Shown here: positions 6,933-63,599 of the stretch, piece by piece | Layout of the letters: the number at the start of each line of letters is the position of its first letter | Numbering within the stretch: position 1 is the stretch's first letter | NCBI GenBank assembly: GCA_951406725.2 | Contig: OX597819.1 | Span: forward strand, 26,722,001 to 26,786,000 | Source: Octopus vulgaris | Lineage: Eukaryota | Reading direction: 5' to 3' | DNA: 64,000 bases | Translations under genes and position numbers: made by a program | Notes under the pieces: generated by a model | The model's database searches: none | What the model saw: only the letters and a program-made list of their open reading frames with translations | What the model was told of the DNA's origin: nothing

Positions 6933-6935
<3 letters not shown>

Positions 6936-7084
6936 GCAGGAGTGGCTGACTTGTAAGTAACTTGCTTACCAGCCACATGGTTCCGGTTTCAGTCCCACAG
7001 TGTGGCACCTTATGCAACTTTCTTCTACCATAGCCTTGGGCCGACCAAAGTCTTGTTAGACGGAAACTGACAGAAACCCGTCGA

Positions 7085-7118
<34 letters not shown>

Positions 7119-7333
7119 TATATGTGTGTGTGTGTGTGTCTGTGTTTGTCCCCCCCCCCCCAACATTGCTTGACAACCGACGCTGGTGTGTTTACGTCCT
7201 CGTAACTTAGCAGTACGCCAAAAGAGACTGATAGAGTAAGTACTACGCTCACAAAGGATAAGTCCTAAAGTCGATCTGTTCGACTAAAGGTGGTGCTCCA
7301 GCATGGCCGCAGTCAAATGACTGAAACAAATAA
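6933..7333 (+). mobile_element. SINE family A, full length (tRNA head, CORE-like middle, internal TA/TG microsatellite, LINE-type tail)
   Basis: A/B-box-like head, GGCACCTT.GCAA. segment reminiscent of CORE SINEs, tail GGTGCTCCAGCATGGCCGCAGTCAAATGACTGAAAC. Confidence 0.9.
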
Positions 7334-7765
7334 CATAATAAATACAAAACTGAGCTAAGTGAAATAACTGGGGCTGGCTTGTAGTAGAAATTTGGATAGA
7401 AGGTGTGAGGAGATACTTGGCAACTTATTGAAAATATTTGGAGGGGGGATAAAAATAGTCGAGTAGCCAGCGGCAATTGCAACTGGTTCTCTATAACAAT
7501 TAGACAGAGACATGGTTTTGTTTGTGTGTGTATTTGCTTTCTTTCAGTTAAGGCATGTGAACATGTCCTTCTTCAATAGACATCAACCCATCATCTCAGC
7601 ATTACACTCAACTATATTGCATGAGAGTGATTTTAGCCATTAAAAACATACAGGTGTTAAAATCCCTTTTCATGTTTCTTGGGGTGACACAATCTTCACC
7701 GCAGTACTCTGATCTGGTTACTAATACTACTCCAATAAAAATATGGAAAGTGAATTTAGCAGATA

Positions 7766-8048: not shown

Positions 8049-8211
8049 GGCGCAGGAGTGGCTGTGTGGTAAGTAGCTTGCTAACCAACCACATGGTTCC
8101 GGGTTCAGTCCCACTGCGTGGCATCTTGGGCAAGTGTCTTCTGCTATAGCCCCGGGCCGACCAATGCCTTGTGAGGGGATTTGGTAGACGGAAACTGAAA
8201 GAAGCCTGTCG

Positions 8212-8250
<39 letters not shown>

Positions 8251-8463
8251 TTGTGTGTCTGTGTTTGTCTCCCTAGCATTGCTTGACAACCGATGCTGGT
8301 GTGTTTACGTCCCCGTCACTTAGCGGTTCGGCAAAAAAGACCGATAGAATAAGTACTGGGCTTACAAAGAATAAGTCCCGGGATCGATTTGTTCGACTAA
8401 AGGCGGTGCTCCAGCATGGCCGCAGTCAGATGACTGAAACAAGTAAATGAGTAAAAGAGTAAA
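8049..8463 (+). mobile_element. SINE family A, full length
   Basis: Close match to 28733-29149; ends in GTAAAAGA-type repeats. Confidence 0.93.
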
Positions 8464-10584: not shown

Positions 10585-10650
<66 letters not shown>

Positions 10651-10655
<5 letters not shown>

Positions 10656-10845
10656 ATCCAAACAAGAAAATACAAAAAAACACAGCAACGCGAGGACGTG
10701 GAACAAATGAAGTATTATTGAACGCTCAGGAAAGAAGGGAAGAAGGAGGATTTAACGTTTCGAGCGGAGCTCTTCATCGGAAACAAAGGAGAACGAAAGA
10801 TCCCGAGAAGGGAAGACAGAGGAAAAAAATTGCTGGCGGTGCCAT
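10651..10845 (-). mobile_element. Short PLE-terminus-like element carrying a degenerate HHR motif
   Basis: Inverse homologue of 47545-47737; minus strand CCGATGA-A-GAGC-TCC-GCTC-GAAACGTT; flanked by (TA)n. Confidence 0.7.
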
Positions 10846-11620: not shown

Positions 11621-11721
11621 ATATATATATATATATATAAATTAAAATCTTAGGGTAGCAAGAATATTTATCGAAAAAATATTCTTAGTTACCAGTAGTC
11701 TAGCGAGAAGGAAAAAGCGTT

Positions 11722-11857
11722 CTTCCCAACCACATGGTTCCAGGTTCAGTCCCACTGCGTGGCACGTTAGGCAGGTGTCTTCTACTATAAGCCTCGTGCC
11801 GACCAAAGCCCTATGAGTTGATTTAGTAGACGGAAACTAAAAGAAGCCCATTGTATG

Positions 11858-11952
<95 letters not shown>

Positions 11953-12116
11953 TCCCCACCACCATCGCATGGCAACCGATGTTTCTGTTTTTATGTCACA
12001 AAAGATTGAATAAGTGCTATGCTTACAAAGAATAAGTCATGGAGTCGATTTGCTCGACAAAAGGCGGTGCTCCAGCATGGCCGCAATGAAATTGCTGAAA
12101 GGTGTAAAAGAGTAAA
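11722..12116 (+). mobile_element. SINE family A, diverged with internal deletion
   Basis: Head, middle and GGCGGTGCTCCAGCATGGCCGCA tail recognisable. Confidence 0.85.
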
Positions 12117-12190
12117 TACAAAAAGAGCATATCAATAATAATAACAATAATAATAAGGATTATTACGAAATGACATAACCTTTGATTGCT

Positions 12191-12609
12191 TTTTATATAT
12201 ACAGCTTTACATAGACCTACACGTGTTTCAACTACATCGATTAGCAACTGCTGCAATTTTCAACCTTACTATAAGGTTATGGCAGTATATTTAGCATTAT
12301 CTAACGGAATATATCTCTAAATTCTTATCTCATGAGAATTATTATTGGATTTATGTATTAACCATTGAATAACCTAGTTTGACTACCTACCTGTGAGTAA
12401 ATTGGTAAACGTTTGGAGAAATCCCTTACTAATTACGTGTTGTGTGTGTACGCGCATATATTCCGTACGCGCATATATTCCGGAGATATATTCTGTTAGA
12501 TAATGCTAAATATACTGCCATAACCTTATAGTAAGGTTGAAAATTGCAGCAGTTGCTAATCGATGTAGTTGAAACACGTGTAGGTCTATGTAAAGCTGTA
12601 TATATAAAA
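12191..12609. repeat. Long inverted repeat (127-bp arms)
   Basis: 12191-12317 is the reverse complement of 12483-12609 with one mismatch seen; the spacer contains a 17-bp tandem duplication (12448-12481). Confidence 0.92.
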
Positions 12610-12984
12610 GGAAAACAATAATTGTTACTAAATATATCTAGAGTGTTGGAACACTTACATTACTTGAAATAAGTGCTAATTCAGTAGCTTCATCAGTAGG
12701 GACCACTCGACCCGGATTTATTCCAGACTTGCTTCTGTGTCAGTAGATGTGTATTCACCTTTAAAAAAACCATGGGTGATTTAGCGAATCGTTAATGTGT
12801 ATACAATAACTTAATATAGACAACTATATGCAATGTTTAACGATAAATGGAAACTACATATGATTAGTGTGTTAGAACACCTACATTGCTAGAAATAAGA
12901 GCTAAAAATCTCCAAAGCTGTAGTTAATGCATATAATTGTATAAATATGTACTAATAGTGACCGTAATAGCCCGAAAACACCGG

Positions 12985-14711: not shown

Positions 14712-15108
14712 TTCTTTTCTACTCTAGACACAGGGCTCGAAATTTTGGTGGGAGGGAGCCAGTCGATTAGATCGACTCAACTACGCAACTGGTACTTAAT
14801 TTATCGACCACGAAAGGATGGAAGGCAAAGTCGACCTCGGTGGTATTTAAACTCAGAACGTAAAGACAGACGAAATACCCATTTCTTTACTACCCACAAC
14901 GGGCTAAACACAGAAGGGACAAACAAGGACAGACAAACGGATTAAATCGATTATATCGACCCCAGTGCGTAACTAGTACTTATTTACTCGACCCCAAAAG
15001 GATGAAAAGCAAAGTCGACCTCGGCAGAATTTGAACTCAGAACGTAGCGGCAGACGAAATACCGCTAAGCATTTCGCCCGGCGTGCTAACGCTTCTGCCA
15101 GCTCGCTG
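14712..15108 (-). mobile_element. SINE family B, head-to-tail dimer
   Basis: Two GAGGTCGACTTTGCCTTTCATCCTTTCGGGGTCGATAAA-type bodies (central segment resembling the Meta/MESC SINE domain, from memory) joined at GACGAAATACC|CATTTCTTTA. Confidence 0.88.
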
Positions 15109-15171
15109 CATTATATCGTGCATATATTATCAAATATACAAATAAATGCAACAACCTTATATTTGTCCAAG

Positions 15172-16936: not shown

Positions 16937-17082
16937 GTAAGTGAAACTTAATACAAAATGAATATAAATAGCATTTCAGACGATATGCCATTCCGTCTGT
17001 CTATCAATCGATTTATATATTAATCAAATAAATCCAGAAGTGAGGGATTAAAAATATTTATTGCTTAGTTGCTTTCTTCTAT

Positions 17083-17287
17083 CTTTTGCTTGCTTCAGCC
17101 ATTAGACTGCGGCCATGCTAGGGCTCCGTCTTCAAGAGGTTTTAGTCGAATATATCAAACGCAGTACTTATTTTATCGGTGTCGTTTACGGAAACGCTAA
17201 GTTACGAGGCCGAAAACATACCAGCACCGGTTGTCATGCGGTGGTGATGGGATAAAGACAGACACATAGACACACGTACACACACAC

Positions 17288-17368
<81 letters not shown>

Positions 17369-17447
17369 CACCTTACTCTAATTAAATAACCTGAGATACT
17401 CGTCCTGTTTTGGTTTTTTTGTCATTTTCCCTTTAATACATACATAC

Positions 17448-17510
<63 letters not shown>

Positions 17511-17685
17511 TTTCTCTAATACATATATATATGATGAACCTATCTCAGTTTCCGTATGCCAAATCCACTCGAAATATTTTGGTCGGCCTTGAGCTATAGT
17601 AGAAGATACTTGCCCAAGGTGCCACGCAGTGGTACTGAGCCCGGATTCATGCGATTGCAAAGCATGTTTCTTACTACATAGCCAC
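17083..17685 (-). mobile_element. SINE family A, diverged, expanded internal microsatellite
   Basis: Tail at 17083-17135, head at 17580-17685; about 150 bp downstream of the BAIAP3 exon donor. Confidence 0.8.
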
Positions 17686-18215
17686 AAGTTATTTCGTAAT
17701 CTCCATTGTTACATCATTTCACAAACGTCTTTCCTACTTATATGTATACGTATATATGCTGCCATATAAGAATATAAGAACCTTTCTTTATATACGTTCC
17801 CTATATATATACATACATAAATACATTCATACATATATACAAACGTATATACGTAGGTGCGTACGTACGTACATGCATACATACATACATACATTATGCA
17901 TATTTTAAGCATCCATCTACGTCTGTGTTCCATCACAAATTAATGTTTAATGAATATTTCTATGGAGTAAAGTCTATTGACTTTTTCATTGTGTAAATGC
18001 ATTTCTGAAATAGTTTGTTACTGAATTAAAAGTTCCATACAGCTAGGTTATATAAATAGATGCATAAACATTTGCCATTTCTTCAATAAGTAAATGATAT
18101 ATGAAGAAATTAATCATTGTCCTATACTTAAATGAAATATATACCTGTATGTATATCTGCGCAAGCGTGAGTATGTATGAACGTATATTTCAATATTTAC
18201 GTGTGTGTGTGTGTG

Positions 18216-21764: not shown

Positions 21765-22132
21765 CGGTTAGCTGGTAGAAGCGTTAGCATGCCGGTCAAA
21801 ATGCTTAATGATATTTCATCCGTCTTTACGTTCTAAGATCAAATTCTGCCGAGGTCGACTTTGCTTTTCATTTCTTTCGGGACCGAAACTGCGACCTTGT
21901 GCTTTCATAAACAACAATCCCTGGTGCATAAACCTCTTGTTATCTGGGTAATTCGGAGTTTTAAAAATAGGCACAAAGTAATTAAAATAATTCGTAATTA
22001 AACTTAAAGAATAACTTCCTTTGACAAGACAACCACTTAGTTTTGCTAAGAAGTGTACTTTGCCGTTTAAATCGACATATTTTAGTAAGAAGATTTTGAT
22101 TGAAACTGCGGCCTTGTGCTAAAATTTTAAGT
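21765..22132 (+). mobile_element. SINE family B interrupted by a 198-bp insertion
   Basis: Head/body 21765-21903, tail resumes after 22101; 19-bp direct repeat GAAACTGCG(A/G)CCTTGTGCT at 21885-21903 and 22102-22120. Confidence 0.75.
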
Positions 22133-22978: not shown

Positions 22979-23176
22979 ATCAAACTCTTCTTACTAAAAT
23001 ATGTCGATTTAAACGGCAGCATACACTTCTTGGCAAAACTAAATGATTGTCTTGTCAAAGGAAATTATTCTCTAAGTTTAATTACGAGTTATTTTAATTA
23101 CTTTGTGCATATATTAAAACTCCAAATTATTTAGATAACAAGGGATTTGTGTACAAGGGATTGTTGCTTTTGAGAG
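22979..23176. repeat. Inverted second copy of the 21904-22101 insert
   Basis: Reverse complement matches along its length (e.g. TTACTAAAATATGTCGATTTAAACGGCA) with scattered substitutions. Confidence 0.85.
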
Positions 23177-23209
23177 TAGAAAACACTGAAATAATAAGAA
23201 AAATATCTA

Positions 23210-23632
23210 TTTCAAATTTTCTCACAAGTCCAGCAATTCCTGGGAGGGGACAAGTAGTACATCGATCCCAGTACTTAACTGGTACTCATTTTATCGGCCA
23301 CATAAGGATGAAAATCAAAGTAGACCTCACACGAATTTAAACTCAAAACGTAAAGACGGACGAAATGCTGCTAAACATTTCGCCCTCGTGTTAACGATTC
23401 TTATTTCTTTATTACCCACAAGGGGCTAAACATAGAGGGGACAAACAAGGACAGACAGAGGGATTAAGTCGATTACATCGACCCCAGTGCGTAACTGGTG
23501 CTTAATTTATCGACCCCGAAAGGATGAAAGGCAAAGTCGACCTCGGCGGAATTTGAACTCAGAACGTAACGGCAGATGAAATACGGCTACGCATTTCGCC
23601 CGGCGTGCTAACGATTCTGCCAGCTCGCCACC
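23210..23632 (-). mobile_element. SINE family B, two adjacent copies
   Basis: Older copy 23210-23400 directly followed by a well-conserved copy 23401-23632. Confidence 0.88.
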
Positions 23633-25865: not shown

Positions 25866-26563
<698 letters not shown>

Positions 26564-26567
26564 CTAA

Positions 26568-26952
26568 TTTTACTCTTTTACTTGTTTCAGCCATCCGGCT
26601 GAGGCCATGCTGGGGCACTGCCCTTGTTGCTACCCTCTCTAAGTCCAGTTTGCCGTGGCTGGCCACTGATCTAAGAGAGAGTTTGTAGATGCTGCCCTTA
26701 GGTTACCTTCGTACCTTGCAGTGGGTTCATCTGGGATCCCGGAAAGCAGCTTGTCTAGATGTTTTTTGAAAATGTCCACATCCGCATCATGTAGATCTCT
26801 TAGTTTTCTTGGCAGTTTGTTGAAAAGCTGAGGGCCCCTGAACCCCAGGCTATTACAGTATCTGCTCCTTACCCTGGATGTGGAAGACGGGACCTTTGGC
26901 ACCACACAGTGACGTCCTGTACGGAGGTTGGAACAGCTCTCAATTCCAAAAT

Positions 26953-26956
<4 letters not shown>
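26568..26956 (-). mobile_element. 5'-truncated CR1/L2-group LINE: ORF2 C-terminus plus 3' tail
   Basis: Minus frame ...[44 protein letters not shown]...* (F..R....FN.LP...FK..LD pattern of CR1/L2 ORF2 ends), stop at 26641-39, then a stem-loop tail and GTAAAAGAGTAAAA. Confidence 0.85.
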
Positions 26957-27935
<979 letters not shown>

Positions 27936-28510
27936 ATATTCATATACGTCTCTCTTTCTCATTTTATTTCTCGCTCTTTCTCTATATATCATATCTCTCC
28001 CTCTCAATATATATGCATTCATTCGTTATGACCTTCAACCTGATAAAACAACGCACATACCCTGGTCAATATATTTTCTATTATACTGGTTTCAGTAATA
28101 TTCTCATATCAATTGACTATGTACGTGAAATTTTGGCCTACATATTTCATTGCTATTGTCTACTTTTCTTTGATTTTCTTAACTTGACTTTCTTCCCAAC
28201 TAATCCAGTCAACCTTGTATTTCCTTTACATGTATTTGTATTTCATATAACAACTATTGTAGAGAGTTTCTGAAACTATTCGATAAGGTAAATTTGAAGC
28301 ACTCATTAACGATATTTATATTAAATATATCCTTCTGCATCTTGAACAATCAAGTATTTATGACAAAATGTTTCCTGTGGCCTTTGAACTGTATAAACAA
28401 TACGAATATCTGACCCTGTGTACTATATTAGCTTGTAACACGCTGACCTTTATTCAATAAATGATTGTCCTTTGTGTTTAATGACACTCAAATACATATC
28501 AATGTAAGCA

Positions 28511-28571
<61 letters not shown>

Positions 28572-28732
28572 ATGTATGTATGTATGTATGTATGTATATA
28601 TGTATATATGTATGTATGTACATATGTATGTATGTATATATATATGTATATATATATATGTGTGTATATATATGTACATATATATATATATATATAAATA
28701 TATATGTATGCTTATGTGTATATATATGTATA

Positions 28733-29149
28733 GGCGCAGGTGTGGCTGTGTGTTAAGTAGCTTGTTTACTAACCACATGGTTCCGGGTTCAGTCCCACAG
28801 CGTGGCACCTTGGGCAAGTGTCTTCTACTATAGCCTCGGGCCGACCAAAGCCTTGTGAGTGGATTTGGTAGACGGAAGCTGAAAGAAGCCCGTCGTATAT
28901 ATATATATATATATGTGCGTGTGTGTGTTTGCGTGTCTGTGTTTGTCCCTCTAGCATTGCTTGACAACCGATGCTGGTGTGTTTAAGTCCTCGTTACTTA
29001 GCGGTTCGGCAAAAGAGAGCGATAGAATAAGTACTGGGCTTACAAAAGAATAAGTCCCGGGGTCGAGTTGCTCGATTAAAGGCGGTGCTCCAGCATGGCC
29101 GCAGTCAAATGACTGAAACACGTAAAAGAGTAAAAGAGTAAAAGAGTAA
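28733..29149 (+). mobile_element. SINE family A, full length
   Basis: Complete head, body and tail; ends (GTAAAAGA)3. Confidence 0.93.
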
Positions 29150-29341
29150 TATGTATATATGTATATATATGTGTGTGTATATATATGTACATATATATAT
29201 ATATACATATATATGTACATATATATGTATATATATATGTACATACATATATATACATATATATTTATATATATGTGTATATATGTATATATATGTGTGT
29301 GTATTTATATATTTATATATAAATATGTATGTATATATTTA

Positions 29342-34253: not shown

Positions 34254-34719
34254 ATGTAAAGTATAAAAGCCATCTCAATATGGCTAACCACAAAGGGGAG
34301 GGGGTGTTACTGTAGCTTTTTAGCCCCAGGAGATCATCGTATCCAGCTGGCTTTAGACACACTTTCTGTGCTCTTTAGGTATTTGCAAAGGGAGGCCATC
34401 CCTTTCTCGTAAGTCAGTTTTTCGAAATCAGTGGCAGACGTCACTAGAAAAACTCTTATATATTTGCAAACAGGCCTTGTCTTTCATCGTGATCTAGTGA
34501 TTACCGCCCGTTGATAAGAGACAATAATCTCGAAACCGGTCCGGTGCGTATCACTCAGGCTTGCGAGAAAGGGATGGCCTCCCTTTGCAAATACCTAAAG
34601 GGCATAGAAAGTGTGTCTAAAGTCAGCTGGAGACGATGATCTCCTGGGGCTAAAAAGCTACAGTAAGACCCCCTCCCCTTTGTGGTTATCCATATTGAGA
34701 TGGCTTTTATACTTTACAT
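34254..34719. repeat. Long inverted repeat (160-bp arms) with an HHR in the spacer
   Basis: 34254-34413 vs 34560-34719, 7 mismatches by my count; arm fragments also at 35005-35062 and 46777-46835. Confidence 0.92.
34505..34548 (+). ncRNA. Minimal type I hammerhead, U3-A8 core variant
   Basis: CCG-UUGAUAA-GAGA(CAAUAA)UCUC-GAAA-CCGG-UC|CGG; palindromic stem III ACCGGU. Confidence 0.65.
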
Positions 34720-34733
34720 ATTCTTTACATATT

Positions 34734-35262: not shown

Positions 35263-35270
35263 ATATATGT

Positions 35271-35464
35271 TCTTTTACTTGTTTCAGTCATTTGACTGCG
35301 TCCATGCTGGAGCACATCTTTCAATCGACCCCAGGATTTATTGTTTGTAAGCCTAGTACTTATTTGAACGATCTCTTTTGCTTTGCGAACCGCTAAGGTA
35401 CGGGGACGTAAGCGCACCTACATCGGTTGACAAGAGATGTTGGGAGGACAAACACAGACACACA

Positions 35465-35499
<35 letters not shown>

Positions 35500-35646
35500 G
35501 ACGGGCTTCTTTCAGTTCCTGTTTACCAAATCCACTCACAATGCTTAAGTCGGTCCGAGACTATAGTAGAAGACACTTGTCCAAGGTGCCAAGCAGTCAG
35601 ACTAAACCTGGCTGGTAAACAAGCTACATGCCAAACAGCCACTCCT

Positions 35647-35650
<4 letters not shown>
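35271..35650 (-). mobile_element. SINE family A, near full length
   Basis: Tail, internal TA tract and head all present. Confidence 0.88.
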
Positions 35651-35718
<68 letters not shown>

Positions 35719-39039: not shown

Positions 39040-39444
39040 CATTTCTTTATTGCCCACAAGGGGCTAAACATAGAGGAGACAAACAAAGGGATTAAGTCGA
39101 TTACATCGACCCCAGTGCGTAACCAGTACTTAATTGATCGTCCCCGAAAGGATGAAAGGCAAAGTCGACCTCGGTGGAATTTGAACTCCGAACATAACGG
39201 CAGACGAAATACCTATTTCTTTATTACCCACAAGGGGCCAAACACAGAGGGGACAAACAAGGACAGACATAGGTATTAAGTCGATTGCATCGACCCCAGT
39301 GCGTAACTGGTACTTAATTTATCGTCCCCGAAAGGATGAAAGGCAAAGTCGACCTCGGCGGAACTTGAACTCAGAACGAAGCGGCAGACGAAATACCGCT
39401 TAACATTTCGCTCGGCGTGCTAACGTTTCTGCCAGCTCACCGCC
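39040..39444 (-). mobile_element. SINE family B, head-to-tail dimer
   Basis: Two bodies joined at GACGAAATACC|TATTTCTTTATTACCCAC. Confidence 0.9.
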
Positions 39445-39817
39445 AGAATATGCTTCAACACATGAACTCACATGAAGAATTAAAGAATCTTGCAAACCAA
39501 ATCCAAAAACGAAATATTGTAGACGTGAAATAGTTTAAGTATTTCCTATCTTCTTTTGGTATTTGAAAGCGCGTAATACTTTGTTGAAGATATAACATTT
39601 GAAACAACGGATTTTTATATATTTCAAATTTCCGTCTGTTTCTCGATATGCTTCTTGTTCATCCTTCTTTTGAGCTGCAGGGGACTTTTTTTTTTCTTTT
39701 GTTTCGTTTTGAGGAGCTGACATTATTCTGTATCTGAACATTTCTGCGAAATTTCGTAAAAGATTTCATATGAAACGGTAACGTTGAAGATAAGCACGAA
39801 AACGTCTACACTTATAT

Positions 39818-40222
39818 TCTTTTACTCTTTTATTTGTTTCAGTCATTTGACTGCGGCCATGCTGGAGCACCACCTTTTGTCAAACAAATCGACTCCCAGG
39901 ACTTATTCGTTGTAAGCCTAGTACTTATTCTATTGGCCTCCTTCTGCCGAACCGCTTGTTGACTTGGACGTAAACACACAAACATCGGTTTTCAAGCGAT
40001 GGTGGGTGGGGGGGGAACATAGACCTCAAAGAAAACACACACACACACATATATATATACGGCGGGCTTCTTTCAGTTTCCATCTACTAAATCCATTCAC
40101 AAGGCTTAGATCGGCCCGGGGCTGTAGTGGAAAATATTTGCCCAAGGTGCCACGCAGTAGGACTGAACCCGGAACCATGTGGTTGGTAAGCAAGCTACTT
40201 ACCACACAGCCAGTCCTGCGCC
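39818..40222 (-). mobile_element. SINE family A, full length
   Basis: Complete reverse copy. Confidence 0.9.
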
Positions 40223-40256
40223 TAAAGCCACCCCTGCCCCTATATATTGCTCATAG

Positions 40257-40582
40257 TTTACTTGTTTCAGTCTCCAGACTCCGGCCGTGCTAGTCACCGC
40301 CTTCAAGAATTCTAGTGGAACGAAAGGAGCCCCATAATTAATATTTTCATAATCCTGATACTTAATTATATCGGTCTGTTTTGCTTAATCGTTAAGCCAC
40401 TAGGGCGTAAACACACTGACACCAGTTGTTAGGGACAAACACAATCACAATAACATACACATATACACGAAATGCTTCTTTAGCTTCCCTCTACCAAATC
40501 TACTCACAAGGTGCCACGCCGTGGGACGGAGCCAGGAACCATATGGTTGTGAAGTAGACGTCTTACCAGTGAGGCCTGTGCC
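40257..40582 (-). mobile_element. SINE family A, older copy
   Basis: Diverged tail and head with internal deletion. Confidence 0.72.
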
Positions 40583-40929
40583 TCTCTGTGTGTGCGCGCG
40601 CGTGTGTGTGTGTATGGCTGTGTGTGAAATTTAGGCTAGTTAAAATATGTTTCTGATATTTTTCAAGTTCTAAAAGTAAAGTCACTGCAGTCTCCGTGGT
40701 GAAAATATTCTTTCTTATTGTAAAATATGTAAAAATACCAAATCTGCCTAGTACTTCCCTCTATCTGATTCCCAGATGCGGCGTTTCTAACTCTTTAAAC
40801 GTTATCAATGGGAAATACCGAAGACAGGTAACTCTGAGCAGATTTAAATTCGCAGCTTTGACTAAAATATAATCAACAACATCGATTAATTAGCGTTTTT
40901 GGATCGCCCGGTCGAGATAAATTCTGCAG

Positions 40930-41157
40930 TACCTATTTCTTTACTACCCACAAGGGGCTAAACACAGAGGGGACAAACAAGGACAGACAAACGGATCAAG
41001 TCAATTACACTGACCCCAGTGCATAACTGGTACTTAATTTATCGGCCCCGAAAGAATGAAAGGCAAAGTCGACCTCGGCGGAATTTGAAATCAGAACGTA
41101 ACGGCAGACGAAATACGGCTACGCATTTCGCCCGGCGTGCTAACAATTCTGCCAGCC
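40930..41157 (-). mobile_element. SINE family B, well-conserved monomer
   Basis: Full head-body-tail; tail abuts TACC as in the dimer junctions. Confidence 0.9.
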
Positions 41158-41705
41158 ACCAAACAGTATTTAGGCATTGGTGAACTTAAGGATAGTTAAT
41201 ATATGTTTGTGACATATTTCATCTTCTAAAGGTAAATTCACTACAGGGGAGAAATGCAAGTTTTATTTATATTTTCAGTTATATTAAAAACAACTTTACA
41301 TTGATCTGAAAGGTTACTTCATACTTTTGTTGGGTAACAAGTATAGTATTGAATAGCAAAGCCAAGAGTAACTTGACTGCATCACAGTCAGTCGATGGCT
41401 TGGCTGACCGAAACCTCAAAGTGACTGTCAATGCTATTCTTGTCAAAGAATAATTAATATATACGTACACACGTACACTCACACACGTACACATACATAC
41501 ACGCTTACACAAACACACGCACACACAAACATATCAGGTGTAATGCTGACAGTGACATGAACTTTCGGCTTACAAACTGTCATCAGGCGATCTGATGAGG
41601 CTGAGCATTTAGTAAATAAGTTTTCTCCTAAGACGTATTTCTAAAATTTAATAGTGTTCTGCTTTTCTATATAACTTCGCATAAAACACAACTTAAACAT
41701 CTATA

Positions 41706-43323: not shown

Positions 43324-43446
43324 ATAAGAGTAAATAATTTCTATAAAGGTTTTTAAAAAAAAACACAATTATTTACTGGTAGAATTCGGTATGTAAATAT
43401 AGCCGATTACCGGCAGGAACTTCTGTAAAGTTCAGTATATATATTG

Positions 43447-43624
43447 TATATAAGAAAAAGGGACAGGCAACAGGTTGCTTGACCGCATACCGAAAAAATA
43501 GAAATACCAGTCAAGAATGCTTATTTCTATATATATATATATATTTCTGATAGAAATAAGCATTCTTGACTGCTATTTCTATTTTTTCGGTATGCGGTCA
43601 AGCAACCTGTTGCCTGTCCCTTTT

Positions 43625-43633
<9 letters not shown>
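43447..43633. repeat. Near-perfect hairpin (~84-bp arms)
   Basis: 43447-43530 vs 43550-43633, one mismatch seen; arm shares ACCGCATACCGAA..TAGAAATA with 46931-46958. Confidence 0.9.
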
Positions 43634-43682
<49 letters not shown>

Positions 43683-44909
43683 CATATATATACATATATA
43701 TATATATATGATCGTGTTCCGAAGGAGAAAATGAGAGTAAGAGTGAGACACTGACAGACATGTAGAAAAGGCCTTCTCTCTTCCCTCTGTATATTTTAAT
43801 TCTTCGTTCTATGTCTCCCTCCATTAATATATCTTATGCCAGCATAGGTGACTTACTTACGTAGCCTGTGTCGATAATCGGAAAGGAAGAGATAATTTTA
43901 TATATTTTGCACACATATATTCGGTAAACTATTTTTAAATTGAAATTTCAGGAATAATTTCCCTTCCGTTTGCTCGCTTTGCCAAGAATTTCATGTCACT
44001 ATTTTTTTTTCCTTTTTCTTCATTTTTGTTTCTTCCGGATATCTGAGTTTGAAATTCGCAGTAGATTGCTTTCTTCCGCGACGATAAAATGAGATATATG
44101 CATACATACATGGTATATATGTATGCAAGTATGCATGCATGTAGATATGTATACATGTATACATAAGCCATAATATATATTGATTTATGTTTGTGATGTC
44201 AAAGGAAAGAAAATATACTCAATTCATAACATAGTGTTTATACTACTATAACCTGAATCCTTGCCAGTCATATTGCTGTATTTCACGTCACCGGTGTTTT
44301 AAATGACTGAAATAGATAAGTCCCATGAAAATACAGACGCAATATATTTCTCTATATTTGGAAACATAGTCAAGAGTCAAGATTTTATTGGTTGAGTGAA
44401 AACCATTAACAAATGCATCACATATTCGTGTAATATTAGAAAGAAAATGATACACTCAATTATTTTCATATAAGTAAGCAAGATATTGTTTTTATATATC
44501 ATATATGTAAAAGGCACAGGAGCCAGAAAAGGGATTATTGTTAATGAAATATTAGTCTTTATGAAAACTGAATGATCATTTTCAGTATTGCCATCTTCCT
44601 GAATACGTCAAATGCATTATGCTGCAAATATTCACACAATGGGTGCTGCTAAGTAGGATGTGATTAGTATAAAATGTTTGAAGGTCACAGTATATGAGCA
44701 TCTATCTTCAATATATATATTTTTTTTTCATTATTCTGGATTTAAGTACAAATAAACAGTGCCCTTGTACTAAATCTAACGATGAATGACAATATGTCTA
44801 TATTTTAATCAACAAATACATTTTAAATTTTAAGCAACTATATTAGTATTAGCATATGTAGTGTTTCTTGAAAATTCCTTTGAAAAATGCTTCTAGTAAT
44901 ATATATATG

Positions 44910-45100
44910 TAGGGAGAGTTTACGAAAAAAACAAGACGAAGACAGGTGGTGTACAAAACAAACAGATGTATTAGTATAACGCTCAGGAATAGAAAGCGTC
45001 TTTTATGTTTCGAGCCTACGCTCTTCTACAGAAAGGGACACAGAAAAAACAAGGAGAGAAAAAAATGTCTGTAGTGGCTAAAGATCTATCATGGCGACTA
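44910..45100 (-). mobile_element. Solo PLE-terminus-like element with HHR motif (U6 variant)
   Basis: Reverse homologue of 63359-63558; CUUU-CUGUAGA-A-GAGC-GUAG-GCUC-GAAACAUA-AAAG. Confidence 0.75.
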
Positions 45101-47544: not shown

Positions 47545-47732
47545 ATCGTTGGCGATTTTCTTTCTCTTGCCCCCTTTGGACTTTTTCTATGTTTCTGACG
47601 AAGAGCTCCGCTCGAAACGGCAGATTCCTCCATCATTTCTTTCCTTTCCTGAGCGTCCAATAACACTGTACATATTCCATGTCCTCGCGTTGTTGTTTTT
47701 TGTTGTTCTTTCTTGCTTGTTCATGTTTGGAT

Positions 47733-47737
<5 letters not shown>
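47545..47737 (+). mobile_element. Short PLE-terminus-like element with HHR core
   Basis: CTGACGA-A-GAGC-TCC-GCTC-GAAAC at 47595-47618; homologous to 10651-10845; ends in (TA)n. Confidence 0.72.
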
Positions 47738-47775
<38 letters not shown>

Positions 47776-54062: not shown

Positions 54063-54420
54063 TGACAATACTCAACGATCATTTCGACATCAGACATTTG
54101 CGAAACTGCGCAACTAGCGACTATACAGACAATGTCCATTTGAAGAAGGGTTTGAGCTAATAAACAGCATAAACATTTGAGCGTCATAAATAAATCCTCT
54201 GTGCCAGTTGTTTGGCAAGAGTGGAGGGCACTTCACTTATGATTTATGACAGCAGTGTACGCCATATGTATACATATATAGATAATAATAATGATAATAA
54301 TAATGATAATAATTATAATAATAATAATAATAATAATAATAGGGAGTATAAATCCAAGCTTACAGGGAAGAATTCAATTTAGTATTAAATCAAATTTCAC
54401 AATATAAATATATAATATAT

Positions 54421-54712
54421 ATAAATTAGAGAAAAACCACTATTATGTAATTCAAACAATGATAGACATAAACCAAATCATATAGAATAAAAAATATATG
54501 ATAAAACATTTATCTAGATTACAATAAATGACATAATAATAAACAGTAAATAATAAGTAAATAATTAGTTTAAATAATTACTTACTGTTTATTATTATGT
54601 ACTTTATTGTGATCTAGATAAATGCTTTATCATATATTTTATGTTTTCTATATGGTATGATTTACGTTTATCATTGTTTTAATTACATAATAGTGCTTTT
54701 TCTCTTATTTAT
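54421..54712. repeat. AT-rich imperfect hairpin (~135-bp arms)
   Basis: 54421-54558 pairs with 54578-54712 (e.g. CATAATAATAAACAGTAA / TTACTGTTTATTATTATG). Confidence 0.8.
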
Positions 54713-54738
54713 GTATATACACATATAGGATATATATA

Positions 54739-57299: not shown

Positions 57300-59190
57300 A
57301 TCCCCAAAGTTTTACGCTTCCATTTCTACCCCACTTTCCACTCTACTTCAGCCATCTTACTCATACACTGAACTCCTCTCTTTCACCTTCCTATGCATAC
57401 TCTACGCTACATAATCCATTTAAATCATCTCTTCCATTAATTTCTCGCTCGCACTAAACAACGTAAACTCCACTCACTCCTCCATTCCGTCACACCTGGT
57501 GCAACTCCCTCCAGCCCTACATCCTCGATACTCTACCACTCATCCTCAAGCCAACCCCTCCGTCACTCCAGCCCCGACACACCCCTCATTTTTCCCCCAG
57601 CCTTCCACTACCCCACCACCCCTCCAACATCTTACCCATCCACCCCTCCTCACTTCAGTCTGTTGTTATCATTCCTCCTGATCCCTTCTCTGAGGCGGAG
57701 CGCTCTCTTCTTAGTAGGCGTCTGCGCTTCATCCCCTCACTCCATCCAGTAACGAATTTCAGATCCGTGCTGACATTCTCAGCTTTGCGTTCAATCCAAC
57801 CCCCAACGTCACACGTACACACCTCTTCGTCTGGCCGAACTTGCGCAACGAGAATGGACCCCAACCTGTTCGCTGGCTACGTTGAGGCCCTAATATTTTC
57901 AAGATTCACAGGTCCCACTCCCGAATTATACGGTTGTTATATTGATGACTGCATCGGTGGACCACGCTTACCTGCGAACAACTAGATTCCTTCTTCACTT
58001 TTGTCCAATCTTTCCATCCTGTCCTCTGAGTCTCCTGCGCCATTTCCAACACTTCCATCGCTTTTCTCGACATTCCTGCCAACATACACAACTCAGCTCT
58101 CACTACTCCCATCCACTAAAAACACACTGACTCACACTCACGAGAAGTTTCTCCTCTTCCCACCCTACCCTAACCAAGCTCTCCGTCCCCTACTCCTAAT
58201 TCTTCTATCTGCGCAGGCTCTGCAGTGGCAACAATGGCTTTGAGACTCAGTCTTAGCTCAAGGCTCATCATCGTCCCTATCATACCACTGACTCATTTAC
58301 CTGCAATTCTAGCAACGTCATTTGCTGCATCTTCTGCTCTTTCTGCTCTTCTCTGTACATCGGTGAAACGGGACGCCGCTTGGCTGACCGGTTCGCGGAG
58401 CAACTCCGAGACATTAGAATCGGCAATGACACCCCGGTCTCGCGTTATTTCCGCTCTACCGGTCATTCATTACAACACATGTCTGTGTTCGGATTGTTCT
58501 TGCGCAGGGGCCATTCGGACTCCCACTTTCGCCGCGAAAAAGAATTAATCTCTCCCAACTCGCCTCCCCTCTTCATCTGATTCCCCTCTTCCCCTCTCTT
58601 GCCCTGGCACCTACTTCCTCTCTTCACTCCTACCCACCTTCTCTCTTCAGTGATGACCCAATCCACACCCATCTCCAAACATCGCAATACCTCATACCCC
58701 ACCGCAACCCCAACATCCTCAAACCCGCCCCACACCATCACATCCCTACACCGCAACACCACCACACCACATCACACAACCCCGCACACACTAGCACTGA
58801 CCACATCCCAGTACCCACACCATCATCCTCACACCCACACATTAAAGACACACACTTGCACACGCACACATCCACACATCAAAGTCACCATCTCCTATCC
58901 ACACGCATACACATACTCTCGCATATACATTCGCACTCGCACCTTCGTTTTGGGATCATCAATACTTTATTATCTCTCCTTCGTCCTTGCTCATCTGTCT
59001 ACCTCTGTTCAGCCAGTCGCCATGATTGAGCGCTAACTCCAAAAGTTTTTTTTCTATTCTCGCGCTTATTTCTGTTGAAGAGCGTATGCTTGAGACGTAA
59101 AGACTTTCTCTCATTCCCGAGCGTCAAATTAATATACCTCCTTGTTGTTTATAAACCTGTCTTCGTCTTTGTTGTTCTGTAAATTTCAGC
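57300..59190 (+). mobile_element. Second Penelope-like element, decayed, with HHR-bearing 3' terminal repeat
   Basis: ATRMDPNLFAGYVE...YGCYIDDCIG (RT); FTCNSSNVICCIFCSFCSSLYIGETGRRLADRFAEQLRDIR...PVSRYF (GIY-YIG); terminal 59013-59190 homologous to the solo copies. Confidence 0.88.
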
Positions 59191-60444
59191 TGCATATATA
59201 TATGTGTGTGTGGGGGGTGTATGCGTGCGTGTGTGTGTGTATTATAGACATGTATGAAGGTAGATAGCTAGATAGATGGACAGACAGATAGATAGATAGA
59301 TACATACATACATACATACATACATGCATACATACATACATACATACATACATACATACATACATACATACATACATACATACATACATACAAACATATT
59401 CCCATAAAAGTAAAGTAATTCATTATTTGACTTCGTTTCGTCATTTACAATATATTGCTTATAAGGCTTTGATATTCATGTATGATTTATGATATCAGCA
59501 TTCAAAACAACTAAATTAATAAAGATGGCTGACAAGATATTACAATTTAAATTACTTTCCTCAAAAAACAATAACATCCTCCAGCATCTTTAAAATGACT
59601 GTGTTTTCCATAAAATATACATAAATATAACGTAAATAATCGAAAATATTCTATGACTTAGTAACGTTTTGTAAATTTTCAGGTGTTCCTTTTTCCATAT
59701 ACATGTGTGTGTGTGTGCGTGTGTGTGCGTTTGTGTGTGCGCGCGTGAGTAGTTTAATTAGTAATATCCGAAAAATATACATTTATGAGCGCGAAATATT
59801 TTATTGAGGAAGTGTTTTCGTATGATATTTAGTTTTAGTGACAAGATTCTTTTAGAAATTGTCATAACATTTCGTTTCTTTTTGACAAACAAATCTTTAT
59901 ATATTTTAAACTGTAAGTTGTGCTGTGCTACCATTACAAATGTAGTTTGTTATTTGTAAAACTTGATATATGAAATAGAATTCAGTTTCATGACAAAAAG
60001 TGTATAACCCATCTTTTAATTTTTCTTTCTTTTCTGTTTTTCGACTCAAACAAAAATTATACTTCGGAAGAAATGTAGGGTTACTTTTTTCGAAAAAATA
60101 ATAATTTTCAATGACAAAATAAGTTTATCTCAACAAAAACTATATTTACGAATGCAACAAATAATATTTTATCTTGAATCTTAATAAATAAAATATATAC
60201 ATTCGCATGTAGTGATATTTTTCTTCGATATATGCCAGCTTATATCTGACAACCTGCAGTATTTCAAAATTTTCTACAAACATTTAACCAAATAACGATG
60301 TCCATTTTTATACTACTGAAAAAAAGTATTGCCATAGTAAAAGATATTCCACTTTACATAATTAGAAAGAATTATTTAGAATTTCTGGAAAGACAGACAG
60401 GAAAACAGTGTATGTGAGTCTAATCCCTTTTCTTTTCTTCTAAG

Positions 60445-61855: not shown

Positions 61856-62251
61856 TACATTCTAAGCAAAAACTTAGAGATGTTTAGTATGCACATGAGG
61901 AACATGAATATCATCATACATTTGAATAGGCTCGAAGAACGATACGACATTATTTTAATCCTCTCATGCAAGAATGCATTCAGAATATTTTTATCTTCTT
62001 GAAAATATCATCAATAATGATACAAGTGTTTCCTCGTGTCGTTTTACTAATCTGCCGACAAAGTATAATATCTTAAAGTAGGGATAGGAAGTTTCTTCAA
62101 GTATCCATTTGTCGCTACTATTCTAACTCAATAACATGAATTCCATTGAATGATTTGAAGGGGTCTACAGCACAATCTTTCGATTTGTCATTTATCCAAC
62201 AGCTTTATATTTTATCTAGAATTAAAGAGCATAAAGCTTTAAGAGTCAATA

Positions 62252-62560
62252 GGTGCAGGCGTGCCTGTGTGCTAAGGAGCTTCTACGATAGCCCTGGGTC
62301 AACCAAAGCTTTGTGATTGAACTTGGCATACTTGGAGACTGAAAGAACACGTTGTATACATATACTGTATATGTGTGTGCGTGTGTGGGTGTTTGTGTGT
62401 GTTTACCTTCCCGTAGCCGAGTGGTTCGGCAAACGAGAGCTATACTATAAGTACCAGGCTTTCAAAACATAAGTACTGGGATGGGTTTATCCCTCTGAAA
62501 ACTCTTGTAGGCGGTGCCTCAACATGGCCGCACTGAAATGACTGAAACTATTAGTAAAAA
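62252..62560 (+). mobile_element. SINE family A, diverged and deleted
   Basis: Head remnant and GGCGGTGCCTCAACATGGCCGCACTGAAATGACTGAAAC tail. Confidence 0.72.
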
Positions 62561-63358: not shown

Positions 63359-63555
63359 AGTCAGACGCCATGATAGATCGTTAGCTACTACACACATCTT
63401 GTTTCTCTCCTTGTTTTTTCTGTGTACCTTTCTGTAGAAGAGCGTAGGCTCGAAACTTAAACGACTTTTTCTATTCCTGAGCGCTATACTAATACATCTA
63501 TTTGTTTTGTACACCACCTATCTTCGTCTTTTGTTGTTTTTTTTTCGTAAACTTT

Positions 63556-63558
<3 letters not shown>
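63359..63558 (+). mobile_element. Solo PLE-terminus-like element with HHR motif (U6 variant)
   Basis: CTGTAGA-A-GAGC-GTAG-GCTC-GAAAC at 63432-63456; flanked by (TA)n; homologous to 44910-45100 and 59013-59190. Confidence 0.75.

Positions 63559-63599
<41 letters not shown>

Follow-up and report, generated by a model that had tools for sequence, protein, structure and literature searches.

A LINE and a SINE family of Octopus vulgaris end in a shared 55-nt tail with two predicted hairpins

A SINE and a LINE with matching tails of the stringent type are a well-known kind of partnership, and what is new in the case described here is the pair named. The tail of UnaL2, ~60 nt long, is the sole cis element needed, and the UnaSINEs are mobilised in trans through it (PMC1636434, excerpts); in ZfL2-1 it is the loop that confers specificity, with a generic reading of the stem (PMC4176376, excerpts). 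UnaL2 with UnaSINE1 and UnaSINE2, as well as ZfL2-1 and ZfL2-2, resemble the octopus pair in a tail of ~60 nt, a mismatched stem-loop, a tandem repeat and no poly(A), as far as the excerpts of these two papers describe them. They differ in belonging to the L2 clade, in having one long stem-loop and a 5-nt repeat, and in that their mobilisation has been seen in cells, whereas the octopus pair has two short predicted hairpins, an 8-nt repeat and a CR1-like protein, and is known from sequence alone.

Closer in host are the bivalve elements BivaV-SINE2 and BivaCORE-SINE1, which were paired with CR1-14_CGi (PMC4824008, excerpts) and later reassigned to CR1-Zenon, together with a single CORE SINE bearing a CR1 tail (PMC11481361, excerpts). 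Like the octopus pair, these unite mollusc tRNA SINEs with a CR1-group LINE through a structured tail, and are argued from compensatory changes; their tail homologies, 35–61 bp at 72–95% in the available text, bracket the 55 nt at 85–87% found in octopus. They differ in being confined to bivalves, with octopus and cephalopod unmentioned in the available part of PMC11481361. In the supplements searched around the bivalve pairs, the available files contain none of the tail motifs, and a search for the protein motifs was likewise empty. The CR1 elements of amniotes, compared here by description and not by sequence, have a 3′ end made of a hairpin plus an octamer repeat and undergo severe 5′ truncation (PMC4316615, excerpts).

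Octopus SINEs named OR1 and OR2 have been classed as CORE-SINEs, and the excerpts of the same three papers name no LINE partner for them (PMC4824008, PMC4758252, PMC5804259). The SINE treated here, SINE A, is like them, in a comparison by description alone, in its tRNA-like head followed by a CORE-like CCTTGGG and in its octopus-type genome. No LINE partner of an octopus SINE is named in the available text of the literature searched, which includes PMC9115989, PMC8967140, PMC3531059 and PMC10294476, and PMC3747384, a paper with a table of SINE/LINE pairs, contains none of the terms octopus, squid, cuttlefish, OR1, OR2, Mollus and Ceph. The pair formed by a CR1-type LINE and SINE A is thus probably unreported, although Repbase, Dfam and SINEBase entries and figures, which lay outside the search, may hold it. 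Of the Octopus vulgaris assembly, 11.6% consists of SINEs, and the SINE families recently active in it have for the most part not been classified (PMC13282606, excerpts). A LINE lineage whose tail matches has likely driven the spread of one large SINE family, and it offers a ready assay; with the mechanism being textbook, the surprise is modest.

The LINE copy, its tail and the predicted fold

The window, a stretch of 64,000 nt of Octopus vulgaris contig OX597819.1 (positions 26,722,001 to 26,786,000, forward strand), carries on its minus strand, at 26953-26568, the final 386 nt of a LINE of the endonuclease/reverse-transcriptase type (Table 1). The frame at 26953-26666 aligns with residues 928-1023 of a full-length ORF2 protein of 1033 aa, P0003, at 67% identity (E 7e-37). 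P0003 bears the Pfam domains RVT_1 (E 9e-33) and Exo_endo_phos_2 (E 5e-10), and because the window peptide is this close to a domain-bearing relative we classify the copy as an APE and RT LINE. The 106-aa window peptide alone has no Pfam match; window-wide, 22 of the 88 stop-to-stop frames of at least 100 aa were scanned, and none scored at the Pfam cut-off. The named proteins close to the window peptide come from Argonauta hians only. In a tree of clade-unlabelled relatives it groups with one Argonauta hians protein (support 99/98), and the sister LINE families include the Argonauta elements P0005 and P0008.

Both flanks of the LINE piece consist of (TA)n, and a target-site duplication is not resolvable. 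At the 5′ break, the four non-family letters yield a direct 8-nt duplication, as from slippage at the end of reverse transcription.

Table 1 Features of the LINE copy and of the two SINE-like families in the window
Feature	Positions	Strand	Details
5′ junction of LINE copy	26942..26957	-	4 non-family letters (26957-26954); family match starts 26953
3′ end of LINE ORF2, 5′-truncated copy	26639..26953	-	C-terminal ~104 aa; TAG stop 26641-26639
LINE-specific 3′ UTR spacer	26623..26638	-	16 nt, absent from SINE; 6/30 identity upstream of tail; SINE-type contigs diverge at 26617-26622
Predicted hairpin 1	26603..26622	-	Lower stem of 3 bp and upper stem of 4 bp, separated by a one-by-one internal mismatch; 4-nt loop
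Predicted hairpin 2	26588..26601	-	5-bp stem, 4-nt loop; pair 4 C-G (LINE) vs U-A (SINE)
AAACAA linker and terminal 8-nt repeat	26568..26587	-	Full unit 26581-26574, partial 26573-26568
SINE A copy with tail	6934..7345	+	
SINE A copy	8049..8463	+	Shared tail from 8402
SINE A copy	11692..12120	+	Hairpin 2 decayed
Older-form SINE A copy	17075..17692	-	10 extra nt before tail; hairpin 2 pair 4 U-G
SINE A reference copy	28733..29148	+	tRNA-like head; microsatellite inside; shared tail begins at 29081
SINE A copy with tail	35268..35651	-	
SINE A copy with tail	39807..40222	-	
Older-form SINE A copy	40255..40585	-	
Older-form SINE A copy	62251..62560	+	
Family B (SINE-like)	14740-15110, 23205-23632, 39040-39444, 40930-41160 (minus) and others		12 stretches, 2448 bp

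The tail begins 16 nt past the ORF2 stop, as the preliminary description of this DNA had reported, and its letters are those quoted there. Its 55 nt (26622-26568, minus strand) are identical to the SINE copies with tails at 29081 and 8402 at 47/55 and 48/55 positions, respectively, and the upstream boundary is sharp, with 6 of 30 letters identical between LINE and SINE over the next 30 nt. A blastn comparison of the 401-nt LINE piece with the window returns seven matches, all to SINE ends (E 2e-14 to 9e-7), and no LINE–SINE homology outside the 3′ ends. The 8-nt terminal repeat described for both elements is indeed present in both: GTAAAAGA occurs once in full in the LINE, followed by 6/8 letters of a further unit, and three times in the SINE at 29.1k.

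A single 5-bp hairpin had been described in the tail. That hairpin is found, but it is one of two: upstream of it, at 26622-26603, LINE and SINE are both predicted to form another. The predicted folds of LINE and SINE have the same layout, in which hairpin 1 is followed by one letter and then by the 5-bp hairpin 2. The SINE tail folds better than 200/200 shuffles (z -3.2) and the tail of the LINE copy better than 189/200 (z -1.7; z -1.3 in another fold run), a slight margin for the LINE, and across the ten tails of the window 91.6% of stem cells are paired. The stems are kept and both loops differ: hairpin 1 closes on CCCA in the LINE and UCCA in the SINE, hairpin 2 on GGAU in the LINE and AAAU or AGAU in the SINE.

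The covariation read from this hairpin, C-G in the LINE against U-A in the SINE, is real, but it concerns a single pair and does not exceed the control: among the ten window tails, changes on both sides occur at 2 of 12 pairs, which 38 of 500 shuffles equal, and the second of these pairs stems from a single degenerate SINE copy. The older SINE copy at 17075-17692 has U-G at pair 4 of hairpin 2, a state between those of the LINE (C-G) and the SINE (U-A).

The tail in other LINE copies and in distant relatives

Among public sequencing runs, 19 of 24 contain at least half of the stretch's words, and seven runs were compared. The preliminary description had allowed that other LINE copies might lack the tail. 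In five of the seven runs, which represent five studies (P2, P4, P5, P7 and P8), the end of ORF2 and the tail lie on one contig. Single contigs of 5704, 1478 and 3126 nt in X2, X4 and X8, respectively, cover 26568-26953 with 4 differences in 386 nt; a 3544-nt contig in X16 covers 26568-26720, and a 201-nt contig in X20 covers 26572-26720 (~150 nt), each with 2 differences. In the remaining two runs no listed piece covers the whole stretch: X1 has pieces of 60–62 nt across 26596-26658, and a 2155-nt contig of X3 reaches 26597.

The window copy breaks at 26953, and the contigs of X2, X4, X8 and X16 continue for 1.1–4.3 kb upstream of this break; they therefore derive from other loci, and their upstream parts are taken to be LINE body. 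The contigs of X4, X8 and X16 stop 2–3 nt beyond the tail, as expected of copies that part into different flanks. The LINE copies are accordingly interspersed and 5′-truncated, with a common 3′ end, and among the matches listed none of the well-supported loose ends parts from the LINE body in the interval from stop to tail. The spanning contigs keep LINE-type letters at the diagnostic positions of the tail. Those of X16 and X20 differ from the window only at 26619 and 26689, where the window copy alone has the variant letter; at 26619 the window has A and the full-length family contigs have G, the SINE letter. Departing from its family at 4 of 386 letters (1%), the window copy belongs to a young, multi-copy LINE.

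That a chance SINE fragment adjoins the stop of one LINE copy might be suspected from the abundance of SINE A, with nine tails in 64 kb, and from the frequent location of both elements in microsatellites. This is hardly credible, as it is contradicted by the longer copies from five studies, which have the same junction and LINE-type letters.

Some contigs of these runs part from the stretch within the tail. In X1, four with loose ends at 26618 agree with the LINE tail at 92% or above and have different upstream sequence, which raises the question of a further passenger. Two contigs of the same run depart at 26603 and show a stem of SINE type with a lengthened loop of 8 nt, and a 184-nt contig of X4 matches at about 80% identity; both are hints of a sister LINE subfamily.

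Related LINE loci were found at least seven times in metagenomes (7 of 466 stretches among the matches listed) and in 3 of 200 stretches from genome contigs. The tail tests cover three of these ten loci, L001, L002 and L010, at 49%, 43% and 44% protein identity to the query, and leave out the seven that lack the ORF2 end. L001 resembles the SINE tail in sequence (18 of 20 aligned letters; 0 of 2000 shuffles as good) and does not show the two-hairpin layout. L002 and L010 have no sequence similarity to the tail (293–1732 of 2000 shuffles as good), and each folds so that a hairpin with a mismatch lies directly against a 5-bp one, after which come a linker rich in purines and repeats of 8 or 10 nt with AAGT at their end; this layout, as a pattern written after the folds had been seen, occurs in 24 and 25 of 2000 shuffles for L002 and L010, respectively. 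Across the LINE, the SINE, L002 and L010, both partners change in three of the five base pairs of hairpin 2, as taken by eye from the folds; a MAFFT alignment mis-paired hairpin 2 of L002 and L010. A covariance model built from the ten window tails detects none of the tails of L001, L002 and L010. When 60 C-terminal extensions of homologues were back-translated, 3 matched hairpin 1 at 17/20 or better (0.28% of shuffles) and 7 at 16/20 or better (2.8% of shuffles). Viral contigs contributed 0 of 23 and 0 of 65 stretches for two LINE alignments, and 0 occurrences of the tail pattern.

The tail is likely to be native to the LINE group, as the distant relatives, through sequence and through a predicted, unproven fold, favour an origin in the LINE. 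The reverse direction, in which a LINE ancestor captured a SINE 3′ end by template switching and the LINE tail is SINE-derived, would agree with the greater age of the SINE copies in the window relative to the LINE copy, and leans on the closest sisters, P0002-P0007, being known here from protein alone. It seems very unlikely in view of the distant group members with the same kind of end (L001 by sequence, L002 and L010 by fold) and of homologues whose reading frames continue into the tail and encode hairpin 1.

Three of the distant loci, L008, L009 and L010, place a eukaryotic-type LINE ORF2 within bacterial metagenome-assembled genomes, probably through host or bystander contamination.

LINE clade and candidate driver of SINE A

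The C-terminal ORF2 motif of CR1 elements is of the L.L.SLE.RR.R kind and that of L2 elements of the LHWLP kind. Close relatives of the window ORF2 read LYSLERRRERY at this motif, which makes the window LINE protein probably CR1-type rather than L2. On the strength of these motifs the LINE is likely of CR1 type, and an L2 assignment was set aside; no clade-labelled CR1 or L2 protein occurs among the homologue, atlas, cluster and PDB matches. The 3′ end of the window LINE has a CR1-like trait in its predicted hairpins followed by an 8-nt repeat. CR1-Zenon was set aside, since a poly(A) terminus is reported for Zenon elements (bioRxiv 10.64898/2026.01.13.699120, excerpts) and the window LINE ends in an 8-nt repeat with no poly(A). 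Thirteen recently active CR1 families are reported for Octopus vulgaris, with 787 insertions and 3.21 Mb (PMC13282606, excerpts). These figures give a mean of ~4.1 kb per insertion, and the 4.6 kb from the start of the X2 contig to the end of its tail is in keeping with such recent insertions.

By analogy with the described pairs, and from the shared 3′ sequence, we infer with good confidence that this LINE lineage mobilised SINE A. In the mechanism proposed, the LINE ORF2 protein would bind the tail hairpins, as UnaL2 and ZfL2 suggest, its endonuclease would nick the target, and reverse transcription would start in the terminal repeat. SINE A RNA made by Pol III would be copied in trans, since it has the same 3′ end. 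The preliminary description had made the same proposal in the present tense. The family-wide tail supports the lineage as partner, but ages and loops make the present young subfamily an improbable driver. The SINE copies differ by 5–25%, against 1% for the LINE copy, and the loops differ, so most SINE A copies probably owe their spread to an ancestor or a sister subfamily.

The same two observations, the mismatch of LINE and SINE in both loops and the greater age of the SINE copies relative to the LINE copy, would also suit a history in which SINE A took the tail long ago and was amplified mostly by another LINE, of another clade or with relaxed recognition, the tail recording its origin. Many LINE clades have recently been active in Octopus vulgaris (PMC13282606, Table 1 of the available text). 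However, all nine of the tail-bearing SINE copies keep the tail as far as the terminal repeat region, and the stems are as highly paired as given above, so that amplification by another LINE appears unlikely. We keep an ancestor or sister of the present LINE as the probable driver. The pair, with its stems kept and both loops different, could serve to test whether CR1-type proteins, unlike ZfL2-1, recognise the stems and not the loops.

A broader picture can be put forward tentatively and with more doubt than belief. A widespread group of CR1-type LINEs in marine invertebrates may mark its RNA with a two-hairpin end, consisting of a mismatched and a 5-bp hairpin with an AAGT-type repeat, that is read by shape and not by loop. 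In octopus this end would be common to several passengers (SINE A in its two forms, plus one or more further elements). It would also have powered one of two great SINE expansions, alongside a Tx1-driven one.

SINE A, family B and other repeats of the window

Nine SINE A ends in the 64 kb carry the tail. The six short-form copies lie 4.7–17.6% from the six-copy majority and the three older-form copies 21.5–24.9%. In the reference copy, a B-box-like GGTTCAGTCC is found at 28786-28795 and a CORE-like CCTTGGG at 28808-28814. The same B-box-like element stands at head position 52–54 in 5 of 11 SINE A copies. ARAGORN finds 0 tRNA genes in the window, and Rfam finds no tRNA at 26500-29300, where its matches are microsatellite-driven and below gathering scores. 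CCTTGGG is a conserved CORE motif (PMC5786205, excerpts), and the CORE likeness of SINE A refers to this 7-nt motif alone.

In 4/4 runs, the loose ends of contigs that match the tail mostly carry the letters found upstream of it in the older form, which has ~10 extra letters, and this form may be very common genome-wide. At 39807-40585 (minus strand), an older-form SINE A is succeeded within ~30 nt by a younger copy in the same direction, with a short head-like piece between them.

SINE A had been called the dominant SINE, a description that the window does not bear out: family A occupies 3005 bp, of which 58 bp are the LINE tail, next to 2448 bp of the unrelated family B. The tail of family B has no kinship with that of SINE A, the best local match being 5 nt. 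Family B forms head-to-tail dimers, and two of its five tail ends (14879 and 39213) join the same place in another B head. Alternating runs of at least 12 lie upstream of the LINE, of 5/10 A copies and of 0/9 B copies, with a background of 16%. A shared (TA)n target preference was considered and set aside, the copies being few and microsatellites possibly arising after insertion.

Self-comparison of the window reveals further repeats. Inverted-repeat pairs that are MITE-like lie at 34254-34413 with 34560-34721, at 43436-43675 and at 54415-54718. Short repeat families start directly at (TA)n, one at 10615-10788 and 47587-47773, another at 44899-45099, 63363-63571 and 59069-59203. Two local repeats are present in two copies each, of ~199 nt at 21902-22100 and 22979-23176 and of ~136 nt at 12182-12317 and 12483-12618.
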